Part shown: positions 3,952 through 52,975 of the stretch, piece by piece
Numbering within the stretch: position 1 is the first letter of the stretch
Layout of the letters: every line of letters starts with the position of its first letter
Source of the DNA: Nitrosopumilus sp.
GTDB lineage: Archaea > Thermoproteota > Nitrososphaeria > Nitrososphaerales > Nitrosopumilaceae
Length of the DNA: 64,000 nucleotides
Assembly: GCA_965207075.1 (NCBI GenBank)
Contig: CBDBLO010000002.1
Span: 2,214-66,213, forward strand
Direction of reading: 5' to 3'
The notes under the pieces: model-generated
What the model was told of the DNA's origin: nothing
The model's database searches: none
What the model saw: the letters and a program-made list of their open reading frames with translations, nothing else
Position numbers and translations under genes: made by a program

Positions 3952-3953
3952 CC

Positions 3954-7937: not shown

Positions 7938-8428
7938 GTCCCATCCACTTTTTTATCAGTGGCTGTCGCGGGCCGGTGAAAGGTGCGCCGCCACGGGGCT
8001 CCAAAGGATCGGGCAGTCCAAGGCGGAGGCGGCAAGGCCGTGCCCGGCCTGCGGCCTCGTGTTTGCACGTGGGGGAAGCAGGATACCGGCCGAGGTATGA
8101 GGCGCCGGAGAACACGGCAGCCACGCAAGCCTGAAATTGCCAGCCCCTTCCTGAGGCGGCCAAGATGCTGCGAGTCCTGTCATTGGGCCTGAGAGGGCCC
8201 TCGGCCGTGGCGCCCGGCGAGTACCGCAGAAAAGTAGCGCGAACGGCTCTCCTGCAGAGGCGCGGAGGCTGCGCGGCCTCCATGACACGCCTGCCCGACA
8301 GCATCCATTACGACTACCGGTTGATGGCAATCGGGCGCCTTGGATTGGCACCGGCGTTTTTCCCACCCCAGCAAGGGAGCCGCGCGACCGCAAGTCTTTT
8401 TAGCCCACTTTGCGACGTAGTGTCAACT

Positions 8429-30685: not shown

Positions 30686-30847
30686 AACTGGATAAATTTT
30701 TTTTGACAGGCTCGCCGCCGCACGGGTTCGCCCGCCGTGCGTGGGGCACCCGCGGCTCGGGGTCCGCGCCCGGCTGCTGGGGGTGGGGGGAGCGGGTGGA
30801 GGCGCGAACCCATACAGGCCATCATCATCATCAGCACCAACAACGCG
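30686..30847 (+). promoter_or_regulatory. Disrupted promoter/leader of S-layer copy A
   Basis: CTCGC-AACTGGA-TAAATTTTTTTTGACAGGC vs CACGC-TTATAAG-TAAATTTTTTTGACAGGC upstream of copy B; 108-bp insertion between ACAGGC repeats; ATG replaced by GCG (30845). Confidence 0.75.
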
Positions 30848-30887
30848 CAAAAGCGAGACCTACAGAAAATATACTAGCATAACGCTA

Positions 30888-36800: not shown

Positions 36801-37874
36801 ACCATCGTGGCGCCAGACCACAACTTCGACTCCGCACTTGTCGACGAGATAGGCGACTCCAACCTCGACCCGATACAGGTATCCACGCGCAGTGCCGACA
36901 TCGACAACTACAAGCTTGTCGAGACCGGTCCTGACACGGGAATCTTCACGGGTGAGGTGATCCTTATCGGATTCGACCACAACGCGGACGGCGACACCGA
37001 GACTGGTACCGAGGCAGGTTATGACAACCCGCAGCGTGACACCAGCCCAGACGGCAGCGGACCCACCAACGGCTACCTCCAGACTGACGATGACGACGGC
37101 ATCACCGTCTCATTCGAGTACTCTGAGGACGAGACCGTAGTGGGCTCTGCTCTCATCAGGTGGAACATAGGCGAAGTGCAGTGGCTCGAGTCATCGTACC
37201 CGGCATCCGGCACAGGAGTGGTCAGGGTCATCGACCCAGACATGAACTGGAACCCGGAGGCAGTGAACAACTTTGTGGTTGACGTGTGGTCAGACGCCGA
37301 CAACGGCGGAATCGACCTCACCGTAACCGAGACCAACGAGGCGACCGGAATATTCGAAGGCACGGTGTTCTTCACCATAACCGACGAGTCGTCCGGGCAC
37401 CGCCTCCGCGTCGCAGAGGGCAACACTGTAACGGCCGAGTATGAGGACAACACGCTACCAGACCCGTACACGACAGCAGACGAGCTCGACATAACGGCAA
37501 CCACGCTGATCGGCACCATCGTGCCTCCGCTGGAGAGGGCGCCCGCAACCAACCTTAGGATTGTGGATGCCTTCGGCAACAGCCTAGACACGGTGTCTGC
37601 AGACCAGCAGGTGCAGATCGTGGCAGACCTGGCCAACGGCCAGGACCGCTCCCAGGCCTTTGCCTATCTGGTACAGGTCCAGGACGCAAACGGTGTCACG
37701 GTCGCGCTCTCCTGGATATCCGGAACGCTGGAGGCAGGACAGTCACTGAGTCCGTCAACATCATGGATTCCATCCGAGGCGGGAACCTACACGGCAACCG
37801 CGTTCGTATGGGAGTCAGTTGACAACCCGACTGCCCTATCGCCGCCGGTCACAACCGACATCACCGTAAGCTAG
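30888..37874 (+). CDS. Large thaumarchaeal-type S-layer protein, copy A (probably a silent cassette)
   Basis: Reading frame open to 37874 (ORF track starts at GTG 30741); N-terminus YRKYTSITLMAIMVAGGLTFA, acidic beta-rich body, DUF5011-like Ig repeats, C-terminal ...SWIP..AGTYTATAFVWES; 30888 is the first ATG inside the homologous region. Confidence 0.85.
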   Translation: MAIMVAGGLTFAVPGADPVFAEVSTSNPNLYVSAEGQDPDNMFAEGNIIEVIIRDDSIGDTDEGEAEPEVTVNGADLRMLQTANGYWTAYFAEVDALAGAAESLPYGVYCSETAASAVTGLPLSDGNGVYLPPGSNCNDSNTSANGHPLIREPRDLTNYDGNSLGQLGLSNANLWPFIQVYDFTSLTDVDIVYNKGGDRQTVTLTFDDPSESHSLDRTKYPQGAHVHIELMDYALNIDPTDEDTWVFDTQNGGAYYNVFDEDGNPSSEINAVGSEAGIDETVSINRGAQGNDVIDCQVTKDFGIQEEDNASRDYLVVDDYGACVPNVGLVAGADDVFTPGNFAIGFVEDGSNNNVFINWAEDQRSNIVVKKDALRGNSFEVDYSSPDAKSGVIGHFFAELALDVPDDTWNSGERIPITLTDEDANVNPLAEDNLEVANPYSLLVPSIRIGSPVTLASATGDVVWFDLADPLPPDTTDPVIRLTGPSEIRLNVGDTYTERGATCTDARDGNLTVSQTSAAPNTNVAGTYTLMYTCTDTAGNSASVTRVVTVDDPDRPDTDMPVITVNPGTDTITAGDTWTDAGASCTDARDGPLTVTTTGTVTNTAPGTYTITYACEDNAGNSATETRTVTVNARQATISLTVDPGQWDDGVIELDISGTTVNVADGIVTLTSDTIPNFGEYDVTVTSNVISGMIPFANVTVSGTHTFTATTSDGSISGSDTANIPPAMSLTNVVHIDSWIDADDVPTADRDYITLRVAGTESVSGPVTLSVLDEDGELTDKLGLPVQFGDNGQVRINITDTSIQGPTQFVLTTTYAGVTSTSNSWTANMPVLLTLDDIIVNEWDNGSLILNITGTKQAIVPNGGGSDNVDVRVSGTTTIVGSVEGYSDGVVNGTVTLADTDWALSGTTVQFELVEDTNTPTIFTSDPVARDIPSILTNLQVTTTGSNAGQWNDGNFEVRVTGSSDGIPEDTLINLEADNGEAWIPVVTGANTPGLLQILAGGDIRATVSIDDINLSGNTVFRLVTATNGATSNNSTAINIPSVFTSLPVITADSDGWGGDNNIDINALGTSGLADATTLQLRVSTGGAFTDVGATSTIAADANGAINHTGSLTDLSLSGTSATFILQATTSGIIVMSDNVTVSIPAALTLADVSFGNAGWTGEEGSQVLNLFVTGSTTLTVGNGASLEYYNEATETWVPVPVDGDGPALVGTIPDDGAIADAQVILDDPELAGDTVQLRLVSTDDTTTAASAPITRTIPALPPSSSSVDMAPTPISFSAQNGFPPITRAVINDISEIPAVHNVQASSPVAIYTWSDDDKTVEAFSDRLRLSEPSERNTITGNSKIVIYGWEPPTFADGVTTLFNWNFGSILSDSIAAGTIITEIRLANAAHTESVLLGDGESGLVDITAMKDDIEALGDTVDLVIMMDNTNIDHVCGDITLVADFFTFGQNDDDGRVNNAIYRIEVEEASSNSADFEGTVEYTMLNQLNIDDPATYTGLRTISDQVSIIVHEDFTDEDSVRVNYLDLGADGVSTQIAIQQAAPTHSAVVSFDAESYKVADTVTITLEDADLNVQNDVIDIYTFSSELTDYIGDDKAYILDVTFDDELWTSGECEGADGFASTGFTLQETAAGSGVFTGDFQIPEYYCQSSTTTMVSVTGVDIEVNYQDFRDASGEEIEVGAGAAVRANTGTVSLDRTVYPVPFAADVFEHTTGTLGQHDLTVHVTIDDPDFDISAAGEDVISNATEYLTVQVIRGSASQTIDLDDAQILETAPDSGAFELDLPLAYDAGPDGSILQGDILQVEYRDPTDASGEENTVTDSATFDLRNGVLQSDKSVYIIGSDMILTLIEPDLDLENDGAESYTLDLIEWDSDAATLGMDNPVFDPEPSELRETGDSTGIFQVIVEIPAEIDGDRLERGEEIELEYVDWGPSGADYVGDESEDVGLTVFTSNFGATIELDQKVYTWTDKVYITIVAPDHNFDSALVDEIGDSNLDPIQVSTRSADIDNYKLVETGPDTGIFTGEVILIGFDHNADGDTETGTEAGYDNPQRDTSPDGSGPTNGYLQTDDDDGITVSFEYSEDETVVGSALIRWNIGEVQWLESSYPASGTGVVRVIDPDMNWNPEAVNNFVVDVWSDADNGGIDLTVTETNEATGIFEGTVFFTITDESSGHRLRVAEGNTVTAEYEDNTLPDPYTTADELDITATTLIGTIVPPLERAPATNLRIVDAFGNSLDTVSADQQVQIVADLANGQDRSQAFAYLVQVQDANGVTVALSWISGTLEAGQSLSPSTSWIPSEAGTYTATAFVWESVDNPTALSPPVTTDITVS

Positions 37875-37909
37875 TATATACACAAAAACACACAGAAAAA
37901 AATTTCCCC

Positions 37910-37928
37910 TTTTTTCTTTTTTTATTTT
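37910..37928 (+). terminator. Archaeal oligo-T terminator of S-layer copy A
   Basis: TTTTTTCTTTTTTTATTTT just downstream of the stop. Confidence 0.75.
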
Positions 37929-38259
37929 GGACTAACAGCGGATGCTGTGACCGTCAGGTTGTAGCATGCGCAAATCCGCGCTATGCTGTATCCAGAGACT
38001 TGGTCGACGAGCAGCAAAAATGGTAATCAAGTACGTGACGTCCCTTGCTGCATGTAGGACGATAACGAAATATGGAATAATTTCCGACCAGCTAACGTGA
38101 AAGATCTACGAGTGCGTCCGACCATGTTAAAGCGGGTTCATCCACCGCGCCGTTCTGCGACGAGTTTTCTTTGCGCGTTTTATTTTCTGCATGTGGGCAA
38201 CCGACGGTTTTTGGGCTGGGCTTGGACATAACCTCTGAAGTCATGGAAGGATTGCACTA

Positions 38260-39663: not shown

Positions 39664-42600
39664 CTAGCTTACGGTGATGTCGGTTGTGACCGGCGGCGAT
39701 AGGGCAGTCGGGTTGTCAACTGACTCCCATACGAACGCGGTTGCCGTGTAGGTTCCCGCCTCGGATGGAATCCATGATGTTGACGGACTCAGTGACTGTC
39801 CTGCCTCCAGCGTTCCGGATATCCAGGAGAGCGCGACCGTGACACCGTTTGCGTCCTGGACCTGTACCAGATAGGCAAAGGCCTGGGAGCGGTCCTGGCC
39901 GTTGGCCAGGTCTGCCACGATCTGCACCTGCTGGTCTGCAGACACCGTGTCTAGGCTGTTGCCGAAGGCATCCACAATCCTAAGGTTGGTTGCGGGCGCC
40001 CTCTCCAGCGGAGGCACGATGGTGCCGATCAGCGTGGTTGCCGTTATGTCGAGCTCGTCTGCTGTCGTGTACGGGTCTGGTAGCGTGTTGTCCTCATACT
40101 CGGCCGTTACAGTGTTGCCCTCTGCGACGCGGAGGCGGTGCCCGGACGACTCGTCGGTTATGGTGAAGAACACCGTGCCTTCGAATATTCCGGTCGCCTC
40201 GTTGGTCTCGGTTACGGTGAGGTCGATTCCGCCGTTGTCGGCGTCTGACCACACGTCAACCACAAAGTTGTTCACTGCCTCCGGGTTCCAGTTCATGTCT
40301 GGGTCGATGACCCTGACCACTCCTGTGCCGGATGCCGGGTACGATGACTCGAGCCACTGCACTTCGCCTATGTTCCACCTGATGAGAGCAGAGCCCACTA
40401 CGGTCTCGTCCTCAGAGTACTCGAATGAGACGGTGATGCCGTCGTCATCGTCAGTCTGGAGGTAGCCGTTGGTGGGTCCGCTGCCGTCTGGGCTGGTGTC
40501 ACGCTGCGGGTTGTCATAACCTGCCTCGGTACCAGTCTCGGTGTCGCCGTCCGCGTTGTGGTCGAATCCGATAAGGATCACCTCACCCGTGAAGATTCCC
40601 GTGTCAGGACCGGTCTCGACAAGCTTGTAGTTGTCGATGTCGGCACTGCGCGTGGATACCTGTATCGGGTCGAGGTTGGAGTCGCCTATCTCGTCGACAA
40701 GTGCGGAGTCGAAGTTGTGGTCTGGCGCCACGATGGTGATGTAGACCTTGTCGGTCCACGTGTACACCTTCTGGTCCAGCTCGATGGTCGCGCCAAAGTT
40801 GGAGGTGAATACCGTCAGTCCGACGTCCTCACTCTCGTCGCCGACATAGTCGGCGCCTGACGGACCCCAGTCAACGTACTCGAGCTCGATCTCCTCACCC
40901 CTCTCGAGGCGGTCGCCGTCGATCTCCGCGGGAATCTCGACTATCACCTGGAATATTCCGGTGGAGTCTCCAGTCTCACGGAGCTCGGATGGCTCTGGAT
41001 CGAACACTGGGTTGTCCATGCCGAGCGTCGCTGCGTCAGAGTCCCACTCGATCAGGTCGAGCGTGTAGGACTCGGCGCCGTCGTTCTCCAGGTCAAGGTC
41101 CGGCTCTATCAGCGTCAGGATCATGTCTGAGCCGATGATGTAGACGGACTTGTCGGACTGGAGCACGCCGTTGCGCAGGTCGAAGGTAGCAGAGTCTGTG
41201 ACGGTGTTCTCCTCGCCTGACGCGTCAGTCGGGTCGCGGTACTCGACCTGCAGGATGTCTCCTTGCAGTATCGATCCGTCCGGACCGGCGTCGTACGCGA
41301 GTGGCAGGTCAAGCTCGAATGCGCCGCTGTCGGGCGCGGTCTCGAGGATCTGCGCGTCGTCAAGGTCGATCGTCTGGGATGCCGAGCCGCGTATGACCTG
41401 TACGGTCAGGTACTCGGTGGCGTTGGATATCACGTCCTCGCCGGCAGCCGATATGTCAAAGTCCGGATCGTCTATGGTGACGTGGACCGTCAGATCGTGC
41501 TGGCCGAGCGTGCCTGTGGTGTGCTCGAACACGTCTGCCGCGAACGGCACCGGGTATACGGTGCGGTCAAGCGATACCGTACCAGTGTTGGCACGAACCG
41601 CCGCTCCCGCTCCGACCTCGATCTCCTCGCCGGACGCGTCACGGAAGTCCTGATAGTTGACTTCAATGTCCACGCCGGTTACGGAGACCATGGTGGTGGT
41701 GCTCGACTGGCAGTAGTATTCGGGTATCTGGAAGTCGCCCGTAAAGACGCCGGAGCCTGCCGCAGTCTCCTGCAGCGTGAAGCCGGTGGATGCAAATCCG
41801 TCGGCTCCCTCACATTCTCCGGAGGTCCATAGCTCGTCGTCAAATGTGACGTCGAGGATGTAGGCCTTGTCGTCTCCGATGTAGTCCGTGAGTTCAGATG
41901 AGAACGTGTAGATGTCTATCACGTCGTTCTGGACGTTGAGGTCGGCATCCTCCAGCGTTATCGTAACGGTGTCGGCAACCTTGTAGCTCTCCGCGTCAAA
42001 GGAGACCACGGCGCTGTGCGTCGGGGCCGCCTGCTGGATCGCTATCTGGGTTGATACGCCGTCGGCGCCCAAGTCGAGATAGTTGACCCTCACGGAGTCC
42101 TCGTCGGTAAAGTCCTCGTGGACTATGATCGACACTTGGTCTGAGATGGTCCTCAGGCCCGTGTACGTGGCCGGATCGTCGATGTTCAGCTGGTTGAGCA
42201 TGGTGTACTCCACGGTGCCCTCAAAGTCGGCAGAGTTGCTGCTGGCCTCCTCGACCTCGATGCGGTATATGGCGTTGTTCACCCTACCGTCATCGTCGTT
42301 CTGTCCGAACGTGAAGAAGTCAGCAACCAACGTAATGTCGCCGCACACGTGGTCGATGTTGGTGTTGTCCATCATGATGACCAGGTCTACGGTATCTCCG
42401 AGGGCCTCGATGTCGTCCTTCATGGCAGTGATGTCCACCAGGCCGGATTCACCGTCGCCCAGTAGCACACTTTCGGTGTGGGCTGCGTTTGCAAGCCTGA
42501 TCTCGGTTATGATCGTGCCGGCCGCGATGCTGTCGCTCAGTATGGAACCAAAGTTCCAGTTGAACAGCGTTGTGACGCCGTCGGCAAACGTGGGTGGCTC

Positions 42601-45600
42601 CCATCCGTATATGACGATCTTCGAGTTGCCCGTTATGGTGTTCCTCTCGGAAGGCTCGGATAGTCTGAGCCTGTCGCTGAACGCCTCTACGGTCTTGTCG
42701 TCATCTGACCAGGTGTATATTGCCACCGGTGATGAGGCCTGCACGTTGTGCACGGCCGGTATCTCGCTGATGTCGTTGATTACTGCCCTGGTTATGGGCG
42801 GGAATCCGTTCTGTGCGGAGAAGGATATCGGCGTCGGTACCATGTCGACGCTGTTGCCAGATGGCAGTGCCGGAACGACCCTTGATAGGGAGTTTGATAC
42901 TGCTATGGCGGGGTCACTACCTGTTTGCAGTCTGAACTGGACTGTGTCGCCCGCCAGTTCTGTATCATCTAGGGTTACCACCGCGTCAGATATGTCACCC
43001 GCTGTGCCGCTTGCAGCAGGGGTAAGAGGGATCCATGTTTCGCCGTTGGTGGATACCGCTAGTGTTGCGCCTGTACTCAATTTGCTGTTGCCTGTTACAA
43101 ACAGGTTGAGGCTATGATCAGTATCAGTTGTGTTAGTCCATCCTGCATTGCCGAAACTCACGTCTGCCAGGGTCAGTGCCGCAGGTATGCTTACGGTCCT
43201 GTTGCCTGACTCTGCCACATTGCCGCCGACAGTGACTGCCAGTTTGAACGTGGTCGTTATTCCGGACATTGCGATGTCGTTCAGGGTTGCATTGTAGTCG
43301 AAATTGCCGCCTGTAAGGGCGGTGTCAAAGGCATTACCTACGTCAACAAACTCATTAGCTTTCACCGCCTGCAATTGCAGAGACGTACCCGAAGCACCCA
43401 AGCCAGAGGTTCCCTTTACGTTTATCGTAAGGGCGCCAGCATCCGTCCAGTCACCAATCGGCGTGACGGTCGGCAGGGATGTGAGTATGTGCGGGATGCG
43501 CACGGCTGTCGAGTTGTTTGACGCGGCATCGTTGGCATATTCATTGGATTGGTCAGTGCCAGTCACCAGCCTAAACACGGTATCTCCGGACAGAGATATG
43601 TCCGTTATGGATACCGTGGCGCGTATGTCGCCGCCAGACAGTATCCGCAGTCCCGTAGTTGTGCCATCTACAACCGTCGTCCATTGATCGTCGATGTCTG
43701 CCTGCAGGTCAATCTCGGTATCCTCTGCAATGCCGTCGCTGAGTCCTGTCACCCTTACCTCAAAGTTCCCGTCGTTCCACTGGCCCGCGTTGCTGCCGGT
43801 TGTGACAACTTGCAGGTTGGTCAGTATCGGGGGTATGTCTCTGGATAGGGGATCTGATGTGAAAGTCGTCGCCGCACCTCCGGAGTTTTCCACCAGTACA
43901 AACTGTACGGTAGTGCCGGATAATGCGAGGTCGTCGGCGCCAAGTGTTACCGTGCCGTTTACCACGCCGTCATCGAAACCAGAAACCGAAACCGTACCTA
44001 CGGCTGCTCCAGTATCAACTAGATGGACAGTGAATGCGCCACCGCCGTCGGTATTCGGTACGATTGCTTGCTTGCTACCTGTTATGTTCAGTATGAGCGA
44101 ACCCGTGGTTGCACCTGCGATCCATTCATTTACGATGATGTCGTCTAGGGTAAGCAGTACGGGCATGGGCGCAGTCCAACTGTTTGAAGCTACAGGTACG
44201 CCAGCGTAGGTGGTTGTCAGGACAAACTGGGTTGGGCCTTGTATGGCAGTATTCGTTATGTTGATACGCGCTTGGTTGTTGACAAACTGTACAGGTTGGT
44301 TAAGCGTGGCTGTATCAAGCTCGCCGTCCTCATCAAGTACTGACAAGGCAACGGCGCCAGACACGGATTCCGTACCTGCGACCCGTAGCGTAATGTAATC
44401 ATCACCAGTGTCAGGATTAATCCATTCATCTACGGGAACCACGTTGGTAAGGGATATCGCCGGCGGTATGTTTGCCGTGTCGCTGTTACTAATTGAGCCG
44501 TCAGAAGTCGTTGCCGTAAACGTGTGGGTGCCGGACACCGTAACGTTGGCAAAGGGTATCATCCCTGATATCACGTTGCTGGTTACTGCAACGTCATACT
44601 CGCCAAAGTTGGGAATGGTGTCTGACGTCAGTGTAACGGTGCCGTCGGCGACGTTGACCGTGGTTCCGCTTATGTCCAGCTCGATAACTCCGTCATCCCA
44701 TTGGCCTGGGTCGACGGTCAGTGATATCGTAGCCTGTCTGGCATTTACGGTTACGGTCCTAGTCTCGGTTGCGGAGTTTCCTGCATTGTCCTCACAGGCG
44801 TACGTTATGGTGTAGGTGCCCGGTGCAGTGTTGGTGACGGTGCCAGTCGTGGTCACGGTCAGTGGCCCGTCCCTGGCATCCGTACAGCTGGCTCCCGCGT
44901 CGGTCCAGGTGTCACCGGCAGTTATGGTGTCGGTGCCCGGGTTCACGGTAATCACGGGCATGTCAGTATCGGGTCTGTCAGGATCGTCGACGGTTACCAC
45001 TCTGGTAACGGAAGCCGAGTTTCCTGCAGTGTCGGTACAAGTGTACATCAGCGTGTACGTGCCTGCCACGTTAGTGTTGGGTGCAGCCGACGTCTGGGAG
45101 ACCGTTAGGTTGCCGTCCCTCGCGTCAGTACACGTGGCGCCCCGCTCGGTATAGGTGTCGCCCACGTTCAGCCTGATCTCCGAGGGTCCGGTGAGTCTGA
45201 TCACCGGATCTGTGGTGTCAGGCGGAAGCGGATCTGCCAAGTCAAACCATACCACGTCGCCTGTGGCCGACGCCAGCGTGACCGGCGAGCCGATCCTGAT
45301 GGATGGCACCAGCAGGCTGTACGGGTTGGCCACCTCGAGGTTGTCCTCTGCGAGTGGGTTGACGTTGGCGTCCTCGTCGGTAAGCGTTATGGGTATGCGT
45401 TCGCCAGAGTTCCAGGTGTCGTCAGGCACGTCGAGCGCGAGCTCGGCAAAGAAGTGTCCTATGACCCCGGACTTTGCGTCCGGAGAGCTGTAGTCCACCT
45501 CGAAGCTGTTGCCCCTCAGCGCGTCTTTCTTTACGACGATGTTGGACCTCTGGTCCTCGGCCCAGTTGATGAATACGTTGTTGTTGGAGCCGTCCTCCAC

Positions 45601-46680
45601 GAATCCGATGGCAAAGTTGCCGGGCGTGAACACGTCGTCCGCGCCGGCGACCAGGCCCACGTTGGGCACGCAGGCGCCATAGTCATCGACCACGAGGTAG
45701 TCGCGGCTCGCGTTATCTTCCTCCTGTATTCCAAAGTCCTTTGTCACCTGGCAGTCGATCACGTCGTTGCCCTGTGCGCCGCGGTTTATGCTTACGGTCT
45801 CGTCGATGCCGGCCTCCGAGCCAACTGCGTTGATCTCAGAGCTCGGGTTTCCGTCCTCGTCAAACACGTTGTAGTACGCCCCACCGTTCTGGGTGTCGAA
45901 CACCCACGTGTCCTCGTCTGTCGGGTCTATGTTCAGTGCATAGTCCATCAGCTCGATGTGCACGTGAGCGCCCTGCGGGTACTTGGTGCGGTCTAGCGAG
46001 TGGGATTCTGACGGGTCGTCAAACGTCAGGGTGACGGTCTGGCGATCGCCGCCCTTGTTGTAGACGATGTCGACGTCAGTCAGTGACGTAAAGTCGTATA
46101 CCTGGATGAAGGGCCAAAGGTTCGCGTTGGACAGTCCAAGCTGTCCCAGCGAGTTGCCGTCATAGTTGGTCAGGTCGCGCGGCTCCCTTATCAGGGGGTG
46201 GCCGTTGGCGCTGGTGTTGGAATCATTACAGTTGGAGCCGGGCGGCAGGTATACGCCGTTGCCGTCGCTGAGCGGAAGACCTGTCACCGCTGACGCGGCA
46301 GTCTCGCTACAGTATACACCGTAGGGGAGGCTTTCAGCTGCGCCCGCCAGCGCGTCCACCTCGGCAAAGTACGCCGTCCAGTAGCCGTTGGCAGTCTGCA
46401 GCATCCGGAGGTCCGCTCCGTTTACGGTAACTTCGGGCTCTGCTTCGCCCTCGTCCGTGTCTCCTATTGAGTCATCTCTTATGATTACTTCGATTATGTT
46501 TCCTTCGGCAAACATGTTGTCGGGGTCCTGTCCCTCTGCCGATACGTACAGGTTCGGGTTCGACGTGCTCACTTCTGCAAACACGGGGTCCGCGCCCGGT
46601 ACGGCAAAGGTCAGCCCCCCGGCGACCATGATTGCCATTAGCGTTATGCTAGTATATTTTCTGTAGATTTCGTTTTGCAT
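39664..46680 (-). CDS. Large thaumarchaeal-type S-layer protein, copy B (probably the expressed copy)
   Basis: 2338 aa; complete signal peptide MQNEIYRKYTS...; near-identical to copy A outside the central segment. Confidence 0.92.
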   Translation of the reverse strand: MQNEIYRKYTSITLMAIMVAGGLTFAVPGADPVFAEVSTSNPNLYVSAEGQDPDNMFAEGNIIEVIIRDDSIGDTDEGEAEPEVTVNGADLRMLQTANGYWTAYFAEVDALAGAAESLPYGVYCSETAASAVTGLPLSDGNGVYLPPGSNCNDSNTSANGHPLIREPRDLTNYDGNSLGQLGLSNANLWPFIQVYDFTSLTDVDIVYNKGGDRQTVTLTFDDPSESHSLDRTKYPQGAHVHIELMDYALNIDPTDEDTWVFDTQNGGAYYNVFDEDGNPSSEINAVGSEAGIDETVSINRGAQGNDVIDCQVTKDFGIQEEDNASRDYLVVDDYGACVPNVGLVAGADDVFTPGNFAIGFVEDGSNNNVFINWAEDQRSNIVVKKDALRGNSFEVDYSSPDAKSGVIGHFFAELALDVPDDTWNSGERIPITLTDEDANVNPLAEDNLEVANPYSLLVPSIRIGSPVTLASATGDVVWFDLADPLPPDTTDPVIRLTGPSEIRLNVGDTYTERGATCTDARDGNLTVSQTSAAPNTNVAGTYTLMYTCTDTAGNSASVTRVVTVDDPDRPDTDMPVITVNPGTDTITAGDTWTDAGASCTDARDGPLTVTTTGTVTNTAPGTYTITYACEDNAGNSATETRTVTVNARQATISLTVDPGQWDDGVIELDISGTTVNVADGTVTLTSDTIPNFGEYDVAVTSNVISGMIPFANVTVSGTHTFTATTSDGSISNSDTANIPPAISLTNVVPVDEWINPDTGDDYITLRVAGTESVSGAVALSVLDEDGELDTATLNQPVQFVNNQARINITNTAIQGPTQFVLTTTYAGVPVASNSWTAPMPVLLTLDDIIVNEWIAGATTGSLILNITGSKQAIVPNTDGGGAFTVHLVDTGAAVGTVSVSGFDDGVVNGTVTLGADDLALSGTTVQFVLVENSGGAATTFTSDPLSRDIPPILTNLQVVTTGSNAGQWNDGNFEVRVTGLSDGIAEDTEIDLQADIDDQWTTVVDGTTTGLRILSGGDIRATVSITDISLSGDTVFRLVTGTDQSNEYANDAASNNSTAVRIPHILTSLPTVTPIGDWTDAGALTINVKGTSGLGASGTSLQLQAVKANEFVDVGNAFDTALTGGNFDYNATLNDIAMSGITTTFKLAVTVGGNVAESGNRTVSIPAALTLADVSFGNAGWTNTTDTDHSLNLFVTGNSKLSTGATLAVSTNGETWIPLTPAASGTAGDISDAVVTLDDTELAGDTVQFRLQTGSDPAIAVSNSLSRVVPALPSGNSVDMVPTPISFSAQNGFPPITRAVINDISEIPAVHNVQASSPVAIYTWSDDDKTVEAFSDRLRLSEPSERNTITGNSKIVIYGWEPPTFADGVTTLFNWNFGSILSDSIAAGTIITEIRLANAAHTESVLLGDGESGLVDITAMKDDIEALGDTVDLVIMMDNTNIDHVCGDITLVADFFTFGQNDDDGRVNNAIYRIEVEEASSNSADFEGTVEYTMLNQLNIDDPATYTGLRTISDQVSIIVHEDFTDEDSVRVNYLDLGADGVSTQIAIQQAAPTHSAVVSFDAESYKVADTVTITLEDADLNVQNDVIDIYTFSSELTDYIGDDKAYILDVTFDDELWTSGECEGADGFASTGFTLQETAAGSGVFTGDFQIPEYYCQSSTTTMVSVTGVDIEVNYQDFRDASGEEIEVGAGAAVRANTGTVSLDRTVYPVPFAADVFEHTTGTLGQHDLTVHVTIDDPDFDISAAGEDVISNATEYLTVQVIRGSASQTIDLDDAQILETAPDSGAFELDLPLAYDAGPDGSILQGDILQVEYRDPTDASGEENTVTDSATFDLRNGVLQSDKSVYIIGSDMILTLIEPDLDLENDGAESYTLDLIEWDSDAATLGMDNPVFDPEPSELRETGDSTGIFQVIVEIPAEIDGDRLERGEEIELEYVDWGPSGADYVGDESEDVGLTVFTSNFGATIELDQKVYTWTDKVYITIVAPDHNFDSALVDEIGDSNLDPIQVSTRSADIDNYKLVETGPDTGIFTGEVILIGFDHNADGDTETGTEAGYDNPQRDTSPDGSGPTNGYLQTDDDDGITVSFEYSEDETVVGSALIRWNIGEVQWLESSYPASGTGVVRVIDPDMNWNPEAVNNFVVDVWSDADNGGIDLTVTETNEATGIFEGTVFFTITDESSGHRLRVAEGNTVTAEYEDNTLPDPYTTADELDITATTLIGTIVPPLERAPATNLRIVDAFGNSLDTVSADQQVQIVADLANGQDRSQAFAYLVQVQDANGVTVALSWISGTLEAGQSLSPSTSWIPSEAGTYTATAFVWESVDNPTALSPPVTTDITVS

Positions 46681-47073: not shown

Positions 47074-48411
47074 TCAGGGCGGCTGCACCGATCCCGGGTT
47101 GATCAGGAACGGGCTGACCAGCCTGTACCAGCTCTCACTTAGGCGCTCATACTCGGACTGGCACTGGCTGGCCCTCGCCTCCGTAAGAAAGCCGCGATTG
47201 ACAAAGTCCGAAAATGCATGCACGTCGCTTCCATACATCCAGCACGCTACGTTGTAGAACCTCTGGGAAGCCAGCGAGTGGGGGCCTGCAAGCTGCCCTT
47301 CGGTCGGGAATATGTCGCTTTGGCCCAGGGACCACGCGCGCAGGGTCGAGAAAAGAATGTTGCCGGCCTGATCAGGCGGGATGTATTCCAGCGCGATTAC
47401 CGTGGCAAACTGATCTACTGCGTCCTCCTCGTTTCCCGTAACCGGCAGGTCGTATACGTCGATCAGGGCGTGCCCCAGCTCGTGCAGCATGATCCACGTA
47501 ACGAAGCCGTTGACCCCATGGGACAGTTCCGCACTCGTGCCGTAGTACGGCGCCAACCGCCCTTCAAGAAACGTGACTAGTTCGTAGCAGACGACTATGC
47601 GCTTGTAGTCCGGATAATAAAACGCGTTGGGCTCGTCGCATTCGTCCATTGTGAGATAGACGTCGTAGGGCAGGGCAAGCGTCTGGCTCAGGCGCCCCGT
47701 GAAGTTCTCGAGAAACAGCCGGTCCTGATAATATGACTTCGGCGCCAGGTTGTGCTGGCTCGCTGCGGCGTAATAGATCGGGACAAAGTCGCCCGAATCG
47801 GTGACTGGCACCACGATCTGCCCGCCCAGGGTGCCCTTCAGGTCCACGATCTCCGCCTCCAGCGCCGTTATTTTCAGTGAGAGGCCCTCTATGATATTTC
47901 TCAGGTTGTCGATGACGCTGGCCAGCAGGGCGATACTCGACGGCGGGACCGGTGTCGTTGGCGGCTGCGGGACCGGTGTCGTTGGCGTATCTGGCTGCCC
48001 CGTCTGGGACCTGGTCGAGACCGTGACAATCTGCGAGACCCCCGAGTTCCCGGCGCCGTTGAAGGCCAGCACGGCGAACTGGTACGTGGTGCCCGGCTCA
48101 AGGCCGCGTACTGTGTAAAAGGTGCCGGCGCTGCCGGTGTCGGAGACCAGCACGGTGAGTATGGACTCGGTCGCGACTGCCCTGGAGAGTATCTTGTAAC
48201 CGGTTATGGTGCGGTCGCCGGGGTTGTCCCAGGTCAGCGTGACTGTACTTGAGGTGGACGAGGCTGCAAGGTTTGAGGGGGGGCGCGGGACTTCGCCCGA
48301 ACTCTGGGCGTATGCCGGAATTGCCAGAGCGGCGCCCGCAACGGCGCATAATGTCACTACTGCCGCCGCCACCACTATGACTTTTTGCGCTGCACGCAAC
48401 GCGCTTGTCAC
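47074..48411 (-). CDS. Secreted FN3 plus coiled coil plus DUF4344-like zinc metallopeptidase
   Basis: Signal peptide; FN3 (PSNL...VTLTW...GY.I...GLEPGTTYQF.V.A); HELGH...NEEDAVD zincin motif. Confidence 0.85.
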   Translation of the reverse strand: MTSALRAAQKVIVVAAAVVTLCAVAGAALAIPAYAQSSGEVPRPPSNLAASSTSSTVTLTWDNPGDRTITGYKILSRAVATESILTVLVSDTGSAGTFYTVRGLEPGTTYQFAVLAFNGAGNSGVSQIVTVSTRSQTGQPDTPTTPVPQPPTTPVPPSSIALLASVIDNLRNIIEGLSLKITALEAEIVDLKGTLGGQIVVPVTDSGDFVPIYYAAASQHNLAPKSYYQDRLFLENFTGRLSQTLALPYDVYLTMDECDEPNAFYYPDYKRIVVCYELVTFLEGRLAPYYGTSAELSHGVNGFVTWIMLHELGHALIDVYDLPVTGNEEDAVDQFATVIALEYIPPDQAGNILFSTLRAWSLGQSDIFPTEGQLAGPHSLASQRFYNVACWMYGSDVHAFSDFVNRGFLTEARASQCQSEYERLSESWYRLVSPFLINPGSVQPP

Positions 48412-48432
48412 TCAATTATTGATATAAAAAGA

Positions 48433-48745
48433 TATAGTGCCGATCCAGGGTTTGCGCGCGTTCCGAAGTCTTGCTGTCGAGGTACTTGTGTGCGTAAAGG
48501 CCAAATCGTATTGTTCCAAGGTACGTTGATACTGCCCTGCGCATGTTGTCAAAAGCCTCGTAATATTCTGAATTTAACAGGTAGTTTTTCCTCCGAGCCA
48601 GAATTGCTCCGAGGCGTCGAGGTACTGCGGTGCCTTGGGCAGGCAGGCGAACCCGACGTTTTTGTTTTTGCCGAATGCCTTCCTCGCCAGCTTCGAGCGG
48701 TACGTTGCGAATCCCGGTTCGGGAGTGCCCCATCACGCCTGCCGT
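48433..48745 (-). pseudogene. 3' remnant of a second IS630-family transposase, with right end
   Basis: Two frames give ATYRSKLARKAFGKNKNVGFACLPKAPQYLDASEQFW / NYLLNSEYYEAFDNMRRAVSTYL, matching the C-terminus of 38286..39284 (QHKHREVKKYL...YLPTATPKLSAVESVW...VTSEHY...HAVSEYF). Confidence 0.75.
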
Positions 48746-48814
48746 GCCCGCAGAGTCACACGCTACGGGCTTGCCACCGATCTCGCCGGCATTGCAGGCG
48801 CCTGATGCGGCTGC

Positions 48815-48939
48815 GTCATCTGCACCGTGTGCACGGCCGGTATCTCCGGGATGTCGTTGGTTACCGTTTTGGTTGTGGGCGGGAACCCGTCACGCGTGGA
48901 GAGGGATGCCGGCGTCGGTGTCATGTCGGCGCTGCGGCC
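48815..48939 (-). pseudogene. Degenerate start of the S-layer constant C-terminal region after a TAG
   Basis: GRSADMTPTPASLSTRDGFPPTTKTVTNDIPEIPAVHTVQ vs GNSVDMVPTPISFSAQNGFPPITRAVINDISEIPAVHNVQ in copy B. Confidence 0.8.
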
Positions 48940-51900
48940 CTATGGCAGTGCCGGAACGACCCTTGATACGGGTGCCGATACTGCCGTGTTTGCGCCAGAA
49001 TCTGCGTCCAGCCTGAACTGGACGGATTTGCCTGCCAGCGTCGTGTCGGTTAGAGCTACCACCGCGTCAGATATGTCACCCGCTGCGGTGCTTGCAGGGC
49101 CAACGTCGGTCCATGTCTCGCCGTCGTTGGAAGACACCTGGAGCATTGCGCCTGCAGCCAATTTACCGTTGCCTGTTACAAACAGGTTGAGCCTATGATT
49201 ATCAGCAGTCGTGTTGGTCCAGCCTGCGTTGCCGAAACTCACGTCTGTCAGGGTCAGCGCCGCAGGTATGCTTACGGTCCTGTTACCCGACTCTGCCACA
49301 GTACTGCCGGTAGTCTCAGTGGCTACCAGTTTGAACGCGGTCGTTGTTCCGGACAGCGAGACGTCGCTCAGGATTGCACTGTAGTCGATGTTGCCGCCTG
49401 CAAGGGCGCCGGTAAAGGCGCCACCCACGTCATCAAACGCATTATCTTTCACCGCCTGCAGTTGCAGAGACGTGCCCGAAGCGCCCAGACCGGAGGCTCC
49501 CCTTACGTTTATCGCAAGTTCGCCACCGGCCGTCCAGTCACCGACTGGCGTGACGGTCGGCAGGGATGCGAGTACGTGCGGGATGCGCAGGGCCGTCGAG
49601 TTGGATGATGCGGCGTCGTTGGCGTAGTCATTGCCTCTGTCGGTGCCAGTCACCAGCCTGAACACGGTATGTCCGTACAGGGATATGTCCGTTATGGATA
49701 CCGTGGCGCGTATGTCGCCGCCAGACAGTATCCGCAGTCCCGTAGCTGAGTATGGCACGACCGTCTCCCAGCCATCGCCGTCGTTTGCCTGCAGGTCAAT
49801 CTCGGTAGCCTCGGAAATACCGCTGCTGAGTCCCGTCACCCTTACCTCAAAGTTCCCGCCGTTCCACTGGCCCGCATTGCTGCCGGCTGTGGCAACTTGC
49901 AGGTTGGCCAGTATCGGGGGGATAGGTCTGGACAGGGGGTTTGATGTGAAGATCGTACCCGGTGCCCCGGTGTCTTCCACCAGTACGAACTGTACGGTGG
50001 TGCCGGATAATGAGAGGTCGTCGGAGCCAAGCGTTACCGTGCCGTTTACCACACCATCACTGTAACCAGAAACGGTACCTACGGTTGTATCAGTGCCAAG
50101 TATGTTGACGTCGATGCTGTCGTCGATAGCCGGCACGATTGCCTGCCTGCTGCCCGTTATCTCCAGTGCAAGATTACCCCCGCCGTCCCACTCACCTACG
50201 GTGACGCCGTCCAGGGTGAGCAGCACGGGCATGCTAGCAGTCCAGCTGTTTGAAGCTGCAGTTACGCCAGCATAGGTGGTCGTCAGGACAAACTGGGTTG
50301 ATCCCTGTATGGCAGTATTCGTTATGTTGATACGCGCCTGGTTGTTGGCATCAAACTGTACAACTACGTTAAGCGCGGCAGTATCCAGCTCGCCGTCCTC
50401 GTCGAGTACCGACAAGGTAACGGCGCCAGACACGGACTCCGTACCTGCGACCCGTAGCGTAATGTAATCGTTAGTAGAGGCAGGGTCGTTATCAGTGTCA
50501 GCATCGATCCATGAGCCTATGGGGATCACGCTGGCAAGGAAGATGGCCGGCGGTATGTTTGCCGTGTCGCTGCCCGTGGTTGCACCGTCAGAAGACGTCG
50601 CCGTAAACGTGTGGGTGCCGGACACCGTAACGTTGGCAAAGGGTATCGTCCCGGATATCACGTTGTCGGTTACTGGAACGCCGTACTCGCCAAAGTTGGG
50701 AATGGTGTCTGACGTCACTGTGACGTCGCCGTCGGTGACGTTGACCGTGGTTCCGCTTATCGCCAGCTCGAGAACTCCGTTATCCCAGTCGCCTGGAACG
50801 ACGTTTAGCGATATCGTAGCCTGTCTGGCATTTACGGTTACGGTCCTGGTCTCGGTTGCGGAGTTTCCTGCATTGTCCTCACAGGCGTACGTTATGGTGT
50901 AGGTGCCCGCCCTGGTGTTGTCGACGATGCCAGTCGTGGTCACGGGCAGTGTCCCGTCCCTGGCGTCGACACAGGTGGCTCCCGCGTCGGTCCACTGGCC
51001 GCCGGCAGTTATGGTGTCGGTGCCCGGGTTCACGGTAATCACTGGGTCGTCAGTATCAGGTGCGGCAGGATCGCCGACAGTTACGACCCTGGTAGCGGTC
51101 GCCGTGTTTCCGGCAGCGTCAGTACAAGAGTACTCCAGCGTGTACGTGCCTGCCCGAGTAGTGTCAGGATCAGCCGACGTCTGGACTACCTCAAGGGTGC
51201 CGTCCTCCGCGTCAGTACACGTGGCGCCGGCCTCCGTATAGGGGTCGCCCACGTTCAGCCCGACCTCTGGAGCCCCGTTGAGTCTGATCACCGGATCACC
51301 CTTGATCAGGAACTGGCCGGCCAGCCTGTACCAGCTCTCACTCATGCGCTCATACTCGGACGGGCACTGGCCGGCCCTCGCCTCCGTAAGAAGGCCGCTG
51401 TCGACAAAGTTCGAAAATGCATGCACGTCGCTTCCATATATCCAGCACGCTACCTTGTGTAGCCTATGGGAAGCCAGCGGGTCGGAGCCTACAAGATGCG
51501 GTTCAGGAAGGGATACGTCGTTTTGGCCCAGGGACCACGCGCGCAGAGTCGAGGAAAGAACGTTGCCGGCCTGATCAGGCGGGATGTATTCCAGTGCGAT
51601 TACCGTGGCAAACTGATCCACCGCGTCCTCCTCGTTTCCCGTAACCGGCAGGTCATACACGTCAATCAGGGCACGTCCCAGCTCGGACAGCATGACCCAC
51701 GTAACGAAATCGCTGACGCCCCGGGACAGTTCCGCATTCGTACCGTAGTACGGCGCCAGCCGCCCTTCAAGGAACGTGACGAATTCGTAGCAGAGGACTA
51801 TGCGCGCGTAATACGGATAATAAACCGCCTCGGGTTCGCCGCATTCATCCATTGTGAGATAGACGTCGTAGGGCAGGGCAAGCGTCTGGGTCAGGCGCCC

Positions 51901-52560
51901 CGTGAGATTCTCAAGAAACAACTGATCCTCATAATATGATTTCTGCGCCAGGTTGTGCTGGCTCGTCGCGGCGTAATAAACCGGGACAAAGTCGCCCGAG
52001 TCGGTGACTGGCGCCACGATCCGCCCGCCCAGAGTCCCCCTCAGATCCACGATTTCTGCCTCCAACGCCGTTATTTTCAGCGAGAGGCCCTCTATGATAC
52101 CTGTCAGACTCTCGATGATGCTGGCCAGTGCAGTGGCATCAGACGGCGGGGCTGTCTGGGCCTTGGGCGAGACCGTGACAATCTGCGAGGGTACCGAATT
52201 CCCGGCGTTATTGACGGCCAGCACGGCGAACTGGTACGTGGTGCCCGGCTCAAGGCCGCTTACGGTGTAGGAGGTGCCGGCGCGGCCGGTGTCGGAGACC
52301 AGTACGGTGAGTATGGACTCGGTCGCGGTGTTCCTGGAGAGTATCTTGTACCCGGTTATGGTGCTGTCGCCGGGGTTATCCCAGGTCAGCGTGACGGTGC
52401 TTGAGGTGGACGTGGCCGCAAGGTTTGAGGGGCGCGCGGGGTTTTCCAAACTTTGGGCATGCGCCGGGATTGCCAAGGCGGCGCCCGCAACGGCGCAGAA
52501 TGCCACTGCCACCACCGCCGCCACCATGACCTTCCGCGCTGCACGCAACGCGCTTGTCAC
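48940..52560 (-). CDS. Chimeric secreted protein: FN3 plus inactive DUF4344-like domain plus S-layer Ig repeats and variable segment (cassette C)
   Basis: First ~420 aa parallel 47074..48411 (HELGH becomes SELGR); from DPVIRL (~51297) onward collinear with the S-layer central region. Confidence 0.85.
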   Translation of the reverse strand: MTSALRAARKVMVAAVVAVAFCAVAGAALAIPAHAQSLENPARPSNLAATSTSSTVTLTWDNPGDSTITGYKILSRNTATESILTVLVSDTGRAGTSYTVSGLEPGTTYQFAVLAVNNAGNSVPSQIVTVSPKAQTAPPSDATALASIIESLTGIIEGLSLKITALEAEIVDLRGTLGGRIVAPVTDSGDFVPVYYAATSQHNLAQKSYYEDQLFLENLTGRLTQTLALPYDVYLTMDECGEPEAVYYPYYARIVLCYEFVTFLEGRLAPYYGTNAELSRGVSDFVTWVMLSELGRALIDVYDLPVTGNEEDAVDQFATVIALEYIPPDQAGNVLSSTLRAWSLGQNDVSLPEPHLVGSDPLASHRLHKVACWIYGSDVHAFSNFVDSGLLTEARAGQCPSEYERMSESWYRLAGQFLIKGDPVIRLNGAPEVGLNVGDPYTEAGATCTDAEDGTLEVVQTSADPDTTRAGTYTLEYSCTDAAGNTATATRVVTVGDPAAPDTDDPVITVNPGTDTITAGGQWTDAGATCVDARDGTLPVTTTGIVDNTRAGTYTITYACEDNAGNSATETRTVTVNARQATISLNVVPGDWDNGVLELAISGTTVNVTDGDVTVTSDTIPNFGEYGVPVTDNVISGTIPFANVTVSGTHTFTATSSDGATTGSDTANIPPAIFLASVIPIGSWIDADTDNDPASTNDYITLRVAGTESVSGAVTLSVLDEDGELDTAALNVVVQFDANNQARINITNTAIQGSTQFVLTTTYAGVTAASNSWTASMPVLLTLDGVTVGEWDGGGNLALEITGSRQAIVPAIDDSIDVNILGTDTTVGTVSGYSDGVVNGTVTLGSDDLSLSGTTVQFVLVEDTGAPGTIFTSNPLSRPIPPILANLQVATAGSNAGQWNGGNFEVRVTGLSSGISEATEIDLQANDGDGWETVVPYSATGLRILSGGDIRATVSITDISLYGHTVFRLVTGTDRGNDYANDAASSNSTALRIPHVLASLPTVTPVGDWTAGGELAINVRGASGLGASGTSLQLQAVKDNAFDDVGGAFTGALAGGNIDYSAILSDVSLSGTTTAFKLVATETTGSTVAESGNRTVSIPAALTLTDVSFGNAGWTNTTADNHRLNLFVTGNGKLAAGAMLQVSSNDGETWTDVGPASTAAGDISDAVVALTDTTLAGKSVQFRLDADSGANTAVSAPVSRVVPALP

Positions 52561-52975
52561 TCAGTTATTGATATAAAAACATACATCGGCAGACCGGCGC
52601 CGGATTCGGATCCGCGGGACGTCGCGCCGATTTACGCGCCGGCCTCAGCTGGCAGATCATTTTTGCGCGCGCTCCAACCTTGCTCAAGATCTTTGGCCTG
52701 ATTGGAGATGCTTCGGGCCTTGGGGGCTCACGTCCGGTACGAGCCGCCGTGGCCCGTCTGCATCCGGCTCCTCGCTGCCGGCCCGCCATGCGGGCGGCCG
52801 TCACGGGTCCGACATGGCGCGATACCGTCGTGCGGGATCTGGAAGGCGGCACAAATCCTCCGATCCTGCGCGTTGCGCCGCACCGCACGCGCGGCCGGGT
52901 CTGCCGCGATCAGGACGCGTCTGCGAAGGACCCAAGATCGCGCAGCATAATAACAAAGACGCGCATAACGAGGGC

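Follow-up and report, generated by a model that had tools for sequence, protein, structure and literature searches.

Segmental gene conversion from silent cassettes operates in Neisseria (pilE/pilS), Borrelia (vlsE/vls), Anaplasma (msp2), and Mycoplasma genitalium (MgPar), and the donor cassettes in these systems are promoterless, truncated, and not expressed by themselves. S-layer switching in Lactobacillus acidophilus (slpA/slpB) and Campylobacter fetus (sap) proceeds instead by inversion of a promoter or gene. In ammonia-oxidizing archaea, the S-layer is regarded as a conserved lattice that concentrates ammonium. The vls and C. fetus systems have been summarised (PMC3971579), and Nitrosopumilus maritimus is known to have two S-layer paralogs, Nmar_1547 (NmSLP, PDB 8c8k) and Nmar_1201, which are 91% identical and differ in one segment (PMC11153153).

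The 64,000-nucleotide stretch of Nitrosopumilus DNA analysed here (hereafter, the window) contains two S-layer genes (A and B), a putative metallopeptidase gene (D), and a chimeric gene (C), which we think is probably an old, conserved chimeric paralog rather than a dedicated silent cassette. Gene C resembles the silent-cassette systems in that it incompletely duplicates the variable portion of a surface protein, lies near an expressed gene, and lacks the constant 5′ and 3′ ends of the S-layer gene, and also in its conserved flanks and the mosaic alleles found in the population. Unlike the donors of those systems, C is not promoterless: a promoter-like element precedes it, it has its own start and signal peptide, and its N-terminal domains are unrelated; moreover, it is a single copy, 18–24% diverged, has no identical tract >64 nt, and resides in an archaeal host. 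Genes A and B, on the other hand, recall slpA/slpB and sap in their opposite orientation and in having identical constant regions around different variable parts, but here a cassette is also fused to another gene (C), and A and B lie tail to tail, each with some promoter-like sequence upstream. Compared with NmSLP, A and B have ~800 extra residues (two Ig-like domains and six modules) where NmSLP has ~180, and by our domain assignment this insert would lie near the outward-projecting domain 4 of NmSLP. Gene C has no described counterpart in N. maritimus.

Domain organization of gene C and its neighbors

Gene C encodes, in order, a signal peptide, an Fn3 domain, DUF4344, two Ig-like domains, and six beta-sandwich modules, the last starting near 50820, 50556, 50232, 49923, 49584, and 49269, with the variable cassette running from ~50541 onward within this array (Table 1). 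Residues 195–413 match the DUF4344 profile PF14247 in Pfam (E=1.4e-46; 159.5 bits against a cut-off of 29.6; profile positions 1–219 of 220). In C, however, the zinc-binding HExxH motif of this domain has become SELGR (51687–51673, minus strand), as also in the orthologs P0002 and P0003, all followed by a C-terminal S-layer-type arm, whereas D is a typical family member with HELGH, which is found in P0006 and P0008 as well. An AlphaFold model of the module array was all-beta (pLDDT 81.6), and a Foldseek search with the model of the arm returned only generic Ig/Fn3 arrays.

Table 1 Features of the locus, with positions in the window.
Feature	Position	Strand	Description	Basis
S-layer gene A	30741..37874	+	Inverted relative to B; cassette 32837-34748
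S-layer gene B	39664..46680	-	2338 aa; cassette ~42790-44689
Gene D, Fn3 + DUF4344 putative metallopeptidase	47074..48411	-	Between C and B; intact HELGH at 47484-47470
Gene C, chimeric ORF	48940..52560	-	1206 aa; 1202 aa from TTG 52548	ORF list, translation, Pfam
TATA-like element TTTTTATATC of C	52570..52579	-	~22 nt upstream of TTG 52548
N-terminal module of C (signal peptide, Fn3, DUF4344)	51301..52560	-	Paralog of gene D, 83.6% nt identity
Two PF16403 Ig-like domains of C	50821..51297	-	Collinear with A 32316.. and B 45210..; 77-93% nt identity to A/B
Array of six ~95-105-aa beta-sandwich modules of C	48943..50820	-		Alignment, motif coordinates, AlphaFold model
Main 'A-like' run in C	50058..50112	-	B the lone outlier once more alleles are added	Three-way comparison
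Second 'A-like' run in C	48972..49024	-		Three-way comparison
Short tract with two-codon indel	49285..49325	-	Common to C and S-layer allele L3A of another strain
Premature TAG ending C	48940..48942	-	TCT in B, TCG in the ortholog from L001
Vestigial tail of C	48763..48939	-	58 in-frame codons, ending at the usual stop of the family (48765-48763)

The TATA-like element, at its spacing from the TTG, fits a leaderless mRNA and may serve as a promoter; it is conserved ahead of C and D orthologs across the window, L001, L002, and L003. The original prediction described the cassette in C as stored, a description at odds with this conserved element, the start, the signal peptide, and the full-length syntenic orthologs described below.

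Genes A and B are NmSLP homologs (PDB 8c8k, E=0), with residues 1–472 and 1430–2338 of B aligning to NmSLP 1–517 and 697–1734. Gene A is identical in nucleotide sequence to B over 31086–32836 and 34749–37956. The canonical conserved promoter and ATG of B lie at 46716–46680, the promoter being kept in L003 (B′), L005, and L007. For the GC-rich leader that precedes A, folding was not improved over shuffled sequence (z=-0.3), and Rfam gave no match. C gave no match to 8c8k by sequence, lacks the NmSLP-type N- and C-terminal lattice-forming Ig-like domains, and has only the inserted arm in common with A and B. For annotation, it should be named neither S-layer protein nor active peptidase.

Relationship of the C cassette to those of A and B

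A third version of the S-layer variable segment had been predicted inside the chimeric gene, collinear with the S-layer Ig repeats and variable segment from 51297, and nucleotide alignment supports this: C from 51297 to 48820 aligns with B 45210–42739 at 81.3% identity over 2502 nt, and its alignment with A consists of two blocks, one of 2150 nt (76.9%) and one of 223 nt (75.8%). C also has the predicted orientation of B, but not the predicted distance of ~4 kb, as 2.26 kb separate its end from the ATG of B and homologous positions are offset by about 6.06–6.09 kb.

Three-way informative sites comprise 109 A-like, 239 B-like, and 295 C-unique sites, and the A/B mosaic anticipated in C is significant (3SEQ-like permutation p<5e-5; runs test z=-4.96; PHI p<5e-4). 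With C of the window denoted wC, GENECONV-like tracts were found for wC–L3A and L1C–L3A (p<5e-4), and a single consistent tree, the outcome named beforehand as speaking against conversion, does not fit the whole segment. The reading of the A patches as transfers from A did not hold, however. With five further alleles added, WIDAD, GYSDGVVNG, and EDT..TIFTS proved common to nearly all alleles, B alone deviating; the 'A-like' patches in C are therefore not A-to-C transfers.

Gene conversion among the three cassettes as a recent event in this genome likewise found no support. The longest exact matches are 61 nt for C–A and 64 nt for C–B, compared with 1752 and 3209 nt for A–B, and the longest tract identical between C and L3A is 73 nt; no long tract of the expression site identical to C was found among A, B, and L3A. 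A GENECONV-like signal for wB–wC (p=0.024) was lost on correction for 15 pairs. This genome thus shows no recent movement of sequence between C and either A or B. Moreover, the G+C content at third codon positions (GC3) is 0.65 in the C cassette and 0.55–0.56 in those of A and B, a gap indicating long separate residence.

Premature stop codon and C-terminal tail

Alignment confirmed that C stops at a TAG where B reads TCT. Judging from the TCG in the L001 ortholog, a single C-to-A change suffices, and the stop is real, since the same codon is present in near-identical contigs of four independent runs (X1, X2, X3, and X5). The ~40 codons predicted to follow do exist, the first 44 being collinear with the S-layer constant region up to ..AVHTVQ (about 74% nucleotide identity) and 14 more leading to a stop, but they are not degenerate: this is the stop that P0002 and P0003 use, so that the codons represent the normal C-terminus of the family, lost here to one nonsense change. 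The dN/dS of the tail is 1.1–1.3 in the C family, compared with 0.15–0.22 for the same stretch in S-layer genes, which partly establishes that the TAG costs C only a neutrally evolving tail.

Orthologs, selection, and expression

P0001 is the exact protein, and the orthologs P0002 (86%) and P0003 (67%) have the same architecture. The gene order acylphosphatase–C–D–S-layer, with full-length orthologs, is found in two other contigs, L001 and L002, while L003 has no C but a single D at its position, with C-type upstream sequence. A scan of metagenome contigs with the N-terminal module of C yielded only distant relatives (29–50% identity) and no further C orthologs.

The dN/dS of the N-terminal module is 0.29–0.51 among C orthologs, compared with 0.20–0.23 for D. 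Between wC and its ortholog L1C, 360 substitutions include one stop, where 6.6 would be expected under neutrality (P(<=1)=0.006), and all three indels are multiples of 3. Furthermore, three C orthologs are open over 1206–1260 codons at 4–12% divergence. These comparisons partly show that the reading frame of C is kept open by selection. In a sponge metatranscriptome of a related strain, the contig depth was 0–3 for C and D as against 290–8300 for the S-layer constant regions; run X30 resembles low-depth DNA and is thus of no use for expression. Gene C probably yields a minor protein, secreted or on the cell surface, that displays an S-layer-like arm.

Sequence exchange among strains

When two alleles of the C locus were compared with two S-layer alleles as a quartet, 121 of 170 informative sites grouped by locus, and the conflicting 49 were clustered. 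Within the tract that C has in common with L3A (Table 1), the C ortholog L1C has the alternative form of B, with a run of six X sites in the quartet. The S-layer allele P0004/L3A of another strain contains C-like stretches, indicating that the C and S-layer loci swapped sequence at some time, and L4A, also an S-layer allele from outside this strain, is C-like in its Ig1 half. Patches of tens of bases have thus moved between C-locus and S-layer-locus alleles over evolutionary time. Whole cassettes have also been replaced: the ortholog L2C has an unrelated cassette in place of that of C, closest (46% in amino acids) to an S-layer cassette of a distant MAG. Parts within C also differ in history, as dS for wC–L1C is 0.06 in the N-terminal part and 0.13–0.23 in the arm, and that for wC–L2C 0.04 and 1.9, respectively.

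Cassette GC3, at 0.53–0.57, lies below the values for both the S-layer constant regions (0.77) and core genes (0.85). Module 2 of B has no relative above 63% among the compared sequences, and one S-layer allele, 99.2% identical over 4.3 kb and fully identical in its Ig and cassette stretch, is found at the position of A in L003 but at that of B in L002, and both of these come from a single sample. In runs X1–X5, the C allele of the window reaches nearly the full depth of the population, whereas the cassettes of A and B from the window reach only part of that depth and abundant copies of an L3A-type cassette occur. These cross-strain data show that S-layer cassettes turn over fast beside a stable C allele. 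The population data are short assembled contigs of mixed-strain samples, in which strains are inseparable from switch variants and several cassettes occur alongside one C allele. A search of these contigs for B/C hybrids gave joints at 51168/45089, 48984/42927, 49737/43723, and 50423/44440, all of them collinear S-layer-to-C-like switches with short or imperfect sides (e.g., 4 mismatches in 41 nt), which fit alleles of co-resident strains; the first occurs in six runs, one a metatranscriptome. No deletion-type C-to-B joint was seen in the contigs.

Origin and role of gene C

As a history of C, we infer duplication followed by deletions. An ancestral arrangement of acylphosphatase, D peptidase gene, and S-layer gene would have been duplicated in tandem; a first deletion in the upstream copy would have taken out the S-layer promoter together with the final 8 codons of D and residues 1–490 of the S-layer protein, and a second the C-terminal lattice-forming part. 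The resulting single ORF would have comprised a D-type promoter and signal peptide, Fn3, DUF4344, the outward-facing arm of the S-layer protein, and a short useless tail; HExxH would have been lost later. The C cassette itself is a diverged sibling of the B type. Synonymous divergence is similar across the segments of C (0.25 for its N-terminal part versus D, 0.22 for its Ig domains versus those of A/B, and 0.26 for the second half of its cassette versus B), which fits one duplication, but the match could be coincidence, since D orthologs themselves differ at dS 0.2–0.29. The 365 nt between the C tail and D have no homology elsewhere in the window, an observation that counts against a duplication origin. 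The dead active site, relaxed dN/dS, and nonsense codon count against a functional C and would also fit a gene on its way out.

That C acts instead as a donor, passing short patches by non-reciprocal conversion into the expressed B (same orientation, 6 kb away) or into A, appears rather unlikely to us. The supposed benefit would be an altered exposed arm allowing escape from viruses or host recognition, as with pilS/pilE or vls. The conserved flanks common to C and the expression genes (the Ig domains at one end and the tail at the opposite end) would suit such a role, as would the C-like stretches in L3A and L4A, the recurrent joint 51168/45089, the stable C allele beside a variable expression site in X1–X5, and a frame maintained despite the dead peptidase motif; frame maintenance leaves a donor role open, since known silent donor cassettes also stay open-reading. 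Against this, the identical tracts are short, the wB–wC signal does not survive correction, GC3 is locus-specific, most informative sites group by locus, and C carries a promoter-like element, a signal peptide, and N-terminal domains of its own. A single cassette of this kind would moreover supply little diversity, its replacement in L2C makes C also a recipient, and the imperfect hybrid contigs fit alleles of other strains. Nor do we think it likely that A, B, and C form an archaeal surface-variation system in which an eight-domain arm is exchanged among the expressed B, the inverted A, and an archive C, the frame of C being kept because it supplies short patches by gene conversion and A being kept identical to B in its constant parts. 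If true, closely related symbiont strains would thereby differ in their S-layer arms while a single C allele stays stable, and archaea would have their first described case of S-layer variation by cassettes.

Lateral import from other Nitrosopumilaceae strains, by homologous recombination via the conserved flanks and with C as one more target, is an appreciable possibility, though short of probable, as the main source of the mosaic. It agrees with the low GC3 of the cassettes, the affinity of the L2C cassette to that of a distant MAG, the isolated position of module 2 of B, and the single allele found at the A and B positions in L003 and L002; alone, however, it leaves unexplained the grouping of wC with L1C by locus along most of the arm, and no donor genomes were found. 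It is compatible with, rather than opposed to, an old paralog. We regard it as improbable that C is a decaying duplication relic, functional neither as protein nor as donor. The change of HELGH to SELGR, a dN/dS above that of D, the neutral tail, the nonsense codon in this strain, the negligible transcript signal in the related metatranscriptome, and the absence of C from L003 would all accord with decay; on the other hand, three orthologs remain open with indels in frame and fewer stops than neutrality predicts, the N-terminal dN/dS of 0.3–0.5 is below 1, the TATA-like element and start are conserved, and the sole stop precedes a tail already neutral in the orthologs. Diversity-generating retroelements combine a reverse transcriptase with a template repeat and confine differences to adenines of the template. 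Such an element was rejected here, as mismatches fall on all four bases (A, 19–39%) and the variable part spans 1.9 kb; none of the window ORFs that were scanned gave a reverse transcriptase.

Beside the conserved C paralog, the high-GC Nitrosopumilaceae lineage of these sponge- and coral-associated runs has a lattice protein with a long outward arm that is hypervariable, compositionally foreign, and present in three copies per genome, and the S-layer cassettes vary among strains whose C alleles are nearly identical. These features suggest that viruses or the host exert strong diversifying pressure on the surface of the archaeon, and they make the locus a concrete place to test cassette exchange for surface variation in archaea. 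P0006 and P0008 were considered as older DUF4344–Ig fusions; their Ig-like domains precede the peptidase domain, unlike those of C, and both are of the D type.

Gene C as a probable conserved chimeric paralog

From residue 422 (position 51297) onward, the product of C, an ORF joining a DUF4344 module to an S-layer arm (Ig-like domains plus the variable segment, or cassette), consists of two PF16403 Ig-like domains followed by a long all-beta region, and it is collinear from this point with the S-layer genes, as originally predicted (81.3% nucleotide identity to gene B and ~77% to gene A over 51297–48820). The AlphaFold model of residues 422–1206 was all-beta (pLDDT 81.6), and its fold matches were generic Ig-like arrays, S-layer proteins among them. 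The stop codon TAG (48942–48940) indeed lies opposite TCT in B, and it is attributable to one C-to-A change, since the ortholog in L001, a contig of a related strain, has TCG. Beyond it, 44 codons are collinear with the S-layer genes, close to the expected remnant of ~40 degenerate codons, but the frame continues for 58 codons to a second stop (48765–48763), which is the normal end of the orthologs; the ortholog proteins P0002 (1260 aa) and P0003 (1232 aa) continue past the TAG position and both terminate precisely at this second stop. The TAG was present in near-identical contigs of four independent sequencing runs, and run contigs bridged the DUF4344/Ig junction and the interval between C and the neighbouring DUF4344 peptidase gene D, showing that C is not an assembly artefact.

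C is more than an isolated cassette; it is a gene. The TATA-like sequence TTTTTATATC (52579–52570) stands ~22 nt 5' of its TTG start and is kept 5' of all C and D orthologs, and the order acylphosphatase–C–D–S-layer was found again in L001 and L002. The window copy (wC) and the L001 ortholog (L1C) differ by 360 substitutions and three indels (6, 3 and 6 nt), with one stop observed against 6.6 expected in a neutral simulation (P(≤1)=0.006). The dN/dS of the N-terminal module was 0.29–0.51 in C versus 0.20–0.23 in D, and that of the post-cassette tail was ~1.2 in the C family versus 0.15–0.22 in S-layer genes, so that the TAG costs C only neutral sequence. The peptidase motif HELGH is changed to SELGR in all three C orthologs. 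Three PF16403 Ig-like domains also lie between the Fn3 and peptidase domains of two D-type proteins of related archaea (P0006 and P0008), indicating that shuffling has distributed these domains over several surface proteins in this lineage.

Features of the S-layer region
Feature	Position	Strand	Remarks
S-layer gene A	30741-37874	+	very long; tail to tail with B
S-layer gene B	39664-46680	-	very long; tail to tail with A
IS630-type (DDE_3) transposase	38286-39284	-	between tails of A and B
ORF C	48940-52560	-	signal peptide, Fn3, full DUF4344 domain (E=1.4e-46)
Gene D	47074-48411		
A-like runs in C	50112-50058; 49024-48972	-	three-way alignment
Cassettes	32837-34748 (A); 42790-44689 (B); 48943-50541 (C)		third-position G+C 0.55-0.65
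TnpB-like (Cas12f1-like TNB) gene	17459-18853	+	
TnpB-like (Cas12f1-like TNB) gene	27324-28676	-	
TnpB-like (Cas12f1-like TNB) gene	56861-58201	+	

Mosaicism and recombination of the cassettes

The cassette of C had been described as mosaic, sharing some patches with A and others with B. Codon-guided alignment of the three gave 109 A-like, 239 B-like and 295 C-unique sites, and the A-like and B-like sites were clustered (3SEQ-like permutation p<5e-5; runs test z=-4.96); a MaxChi-type scan of this alignment was not significant (p=0.07). Five related alleles were then added, namely the C orthologs L1C and L2C and other strains' S-layer genes L2S, L3A and L4A (L2S and L3A being identical across the compared stretch). 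WIDAD, GYSDGVVNG and EDT..TIFTS were common to nearly every allele with B as the sole deviant, indicating that the three-sequence mosaic is largely due to changes in B, not to transfer from A to C. No other copy is more than 63% identical to module 2 of B.

Recombination in the family of C and S-layer alleles is nevertheless real, and a single tree lacking conversion tracts was not upheld: PHI gave p<5e-4 over 506 informative sites, and GENECONV-like tracts were significant for wC–L3A and L1C–L3A (p<5e-4) and marginal for the window's own pairs wA–wC (p=0.001) and wB–wC (p=0.024), the latter two p values being uncorrected for the 15 pairs compared. The quartet wC, L1C/wB, L3A grouped by locus at 121 sites and conflicted at 49, concentrated at ~50530–50250 and ~49440–49060; in the run 49325–49285, with a common two-codon indel, wC equals L3A (S-layer) and L1C equals B. 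Among C orthologs, dS was 0.04–0.08 for the N-terminal module, 0.09–0.23 for the Ig part and 0.17–1.9 for the cassette, so the arm and the remainder of C have had different histories. L2C has an unrelated cassette, to which an S-layer cassette from a distant MAG comes closest.

Exact matches of C were no longer than 61 nt with A and 64 nt with B, and no recent transfer involving C was seen in the window genome. The reading that suits C best is that of a conserved chimeric paralog whose cassette is a sibling of the one in B. Short patches were exchanged long ago between C and the S-layer loci, nothing points to donation at present, and an active donor role for C is unlikely. The observation behind the original prediction is confirmed, and its interpretation partly supported, for past exchange but not for ongoing donation.

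Third-position G+C fell from 0.85 in core genes to 0.77 in S-layer constant regions, 0.68–0.70 in the Ig part and 0.55–0.57 in S-layer cassettes, the cassettes of wC and L1C being at 0.63–0.65. The composition of the cassettes thus looks foreign, and that of the copy in C has shifted further toward the genome's, which fits long residence without replacement. Judged by composition, cassettes may circulate among lineages of lower G+C.

Population and transcript data

In the population data, which are short assembled contigs, those near-identical to window C, carrying the TAG and 4 differences over 501 nt, reached about full depth in public runs X1–X5, and the window's A and B cassettes a fraction of the C depth (~15% for the A cassette in X2 and X4). 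Another abundant allele agreed with L3A at 26 of 27 variant sites. These data indicate that close strains have a common C and differing S-layer cassettes. One S-layer allele (99.2% identical over 4.3 kb, with Ig part and cassette identical) recurs in two contigs from a single sample, at the A position of L003 and at the B position of L002. Collinear joints between S-layer and C-like sequence occurred in several runs, all short or imperfect, and for this reason fit other strains' alleles. In a sponge metatranscriptome of a related strain, S-layer constant regions had depths of 290–8300 versus 0–3 for the C and D regions, only a hint of low C and D transcription, as contig depth is a poor expression measure.

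Origin of C

The N-terminal module of C (51301–52560) is 83.6% identical in nucleotides to D, the similarity (47099–48434 in D) beginning 23 nt 5' of the start codon. The dS was 0.25 between this module and D, 0.22 between the Ig parts of C and A/B, and 0.26 between the second cassette halves of C and B. L003 lacks C, having a single D in its position with C-type upstream sequence. One tandem duplication of a D–S-layer unit followed by two deletions could have produced C, fitting both the dS values and the L003 layout. For the same strain pairs (window, L001, L002), dS of D orthologs was 0.20–0.29, three to five times the 0.04–0.08 of the C N-terminal module; D may have been replaced along with the S-layer gene. 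An insertion of ~0.9 kb between C and D in L001 (5780–6697; 320-aa ORF) and L002 (4702–5613; DDE_3 fragment) is absent from the window (~48700).

S-layer genes A and B and their surroundings

The window's Nitrosopumilaceae archaeon has ~60% G+C, its nearest genome records are Nitrosopumilus/Nitrosopumilaceae MAGs, and sponge, coral and marine metagenomes are among the public runs containing window sequence. B matched the N. maritimus S-layer protein NmSLP (PDB 8c8k; E=0), residues 1–472 aligning with NmSLP 1–517 and 1430–2338 with 697–1734, which leaves ~800 extra residues in B where NmSLP has ~180. Domain 4 of NmSLP, nested in domain 3, is described as projecting to the outside (PMC11153153), and the insert would lie at its position.

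A and B are nucleotide-identical over 1752 nt (A 31086–32836) and 3209 nt (A 34749–37956) and differ in the ~1.9 kb separating these blocks, together forming a 7.1-kb inverted repeat (30835–37956 and 46690–39582) with the diverged 1.9-kb cassette inside. Such identity around a diverged cassette implies ongoing homogenisation halting at the cassette borders. In a second MAG, OZ242041 (L005/L006), two paralogs likewise converge, but they are only 86–98% alike. The depth of the IS630-type transposase contig was several times that of its flanks in the runs, indicating a multi-copy element, and L003 has no IS between its A-type and B-type gene tails. With three TnpB-like genes in 64 kb, the surroundings of the S-layer genes are rich in mobile elements.

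The promoter-like sequence and ATG of B (46716–46680) are of canonical form, and L003 B', L005 and L007 conserve them. At the start of A, the stretch 30690–30890 has a partial promoter-like sequence only (GGATAAATTTTTTTTGACAGGC), then a 108-nt GC-rich leader, with no ATG at the canonical place and the next at 30888; the canonical start is also missing in L006 and L003 A'. Gene A may be under different control or weakly expressed. In L002 (7x coverage), the S-layer gene at the B position lacks ~150 nt including promoter and ATG (at 7440–7490), which reflects either a genuine deletion haplotype or an assembly error caused by low coverage. In L003 (14485–14850), the A-type gene reaches constant-region residue 646 and is followed by a reversed, far more diverged B' at residue 645, a tail-to-tail junction at the same residue that could reflect a true rearrangement or a fault of the assembly.
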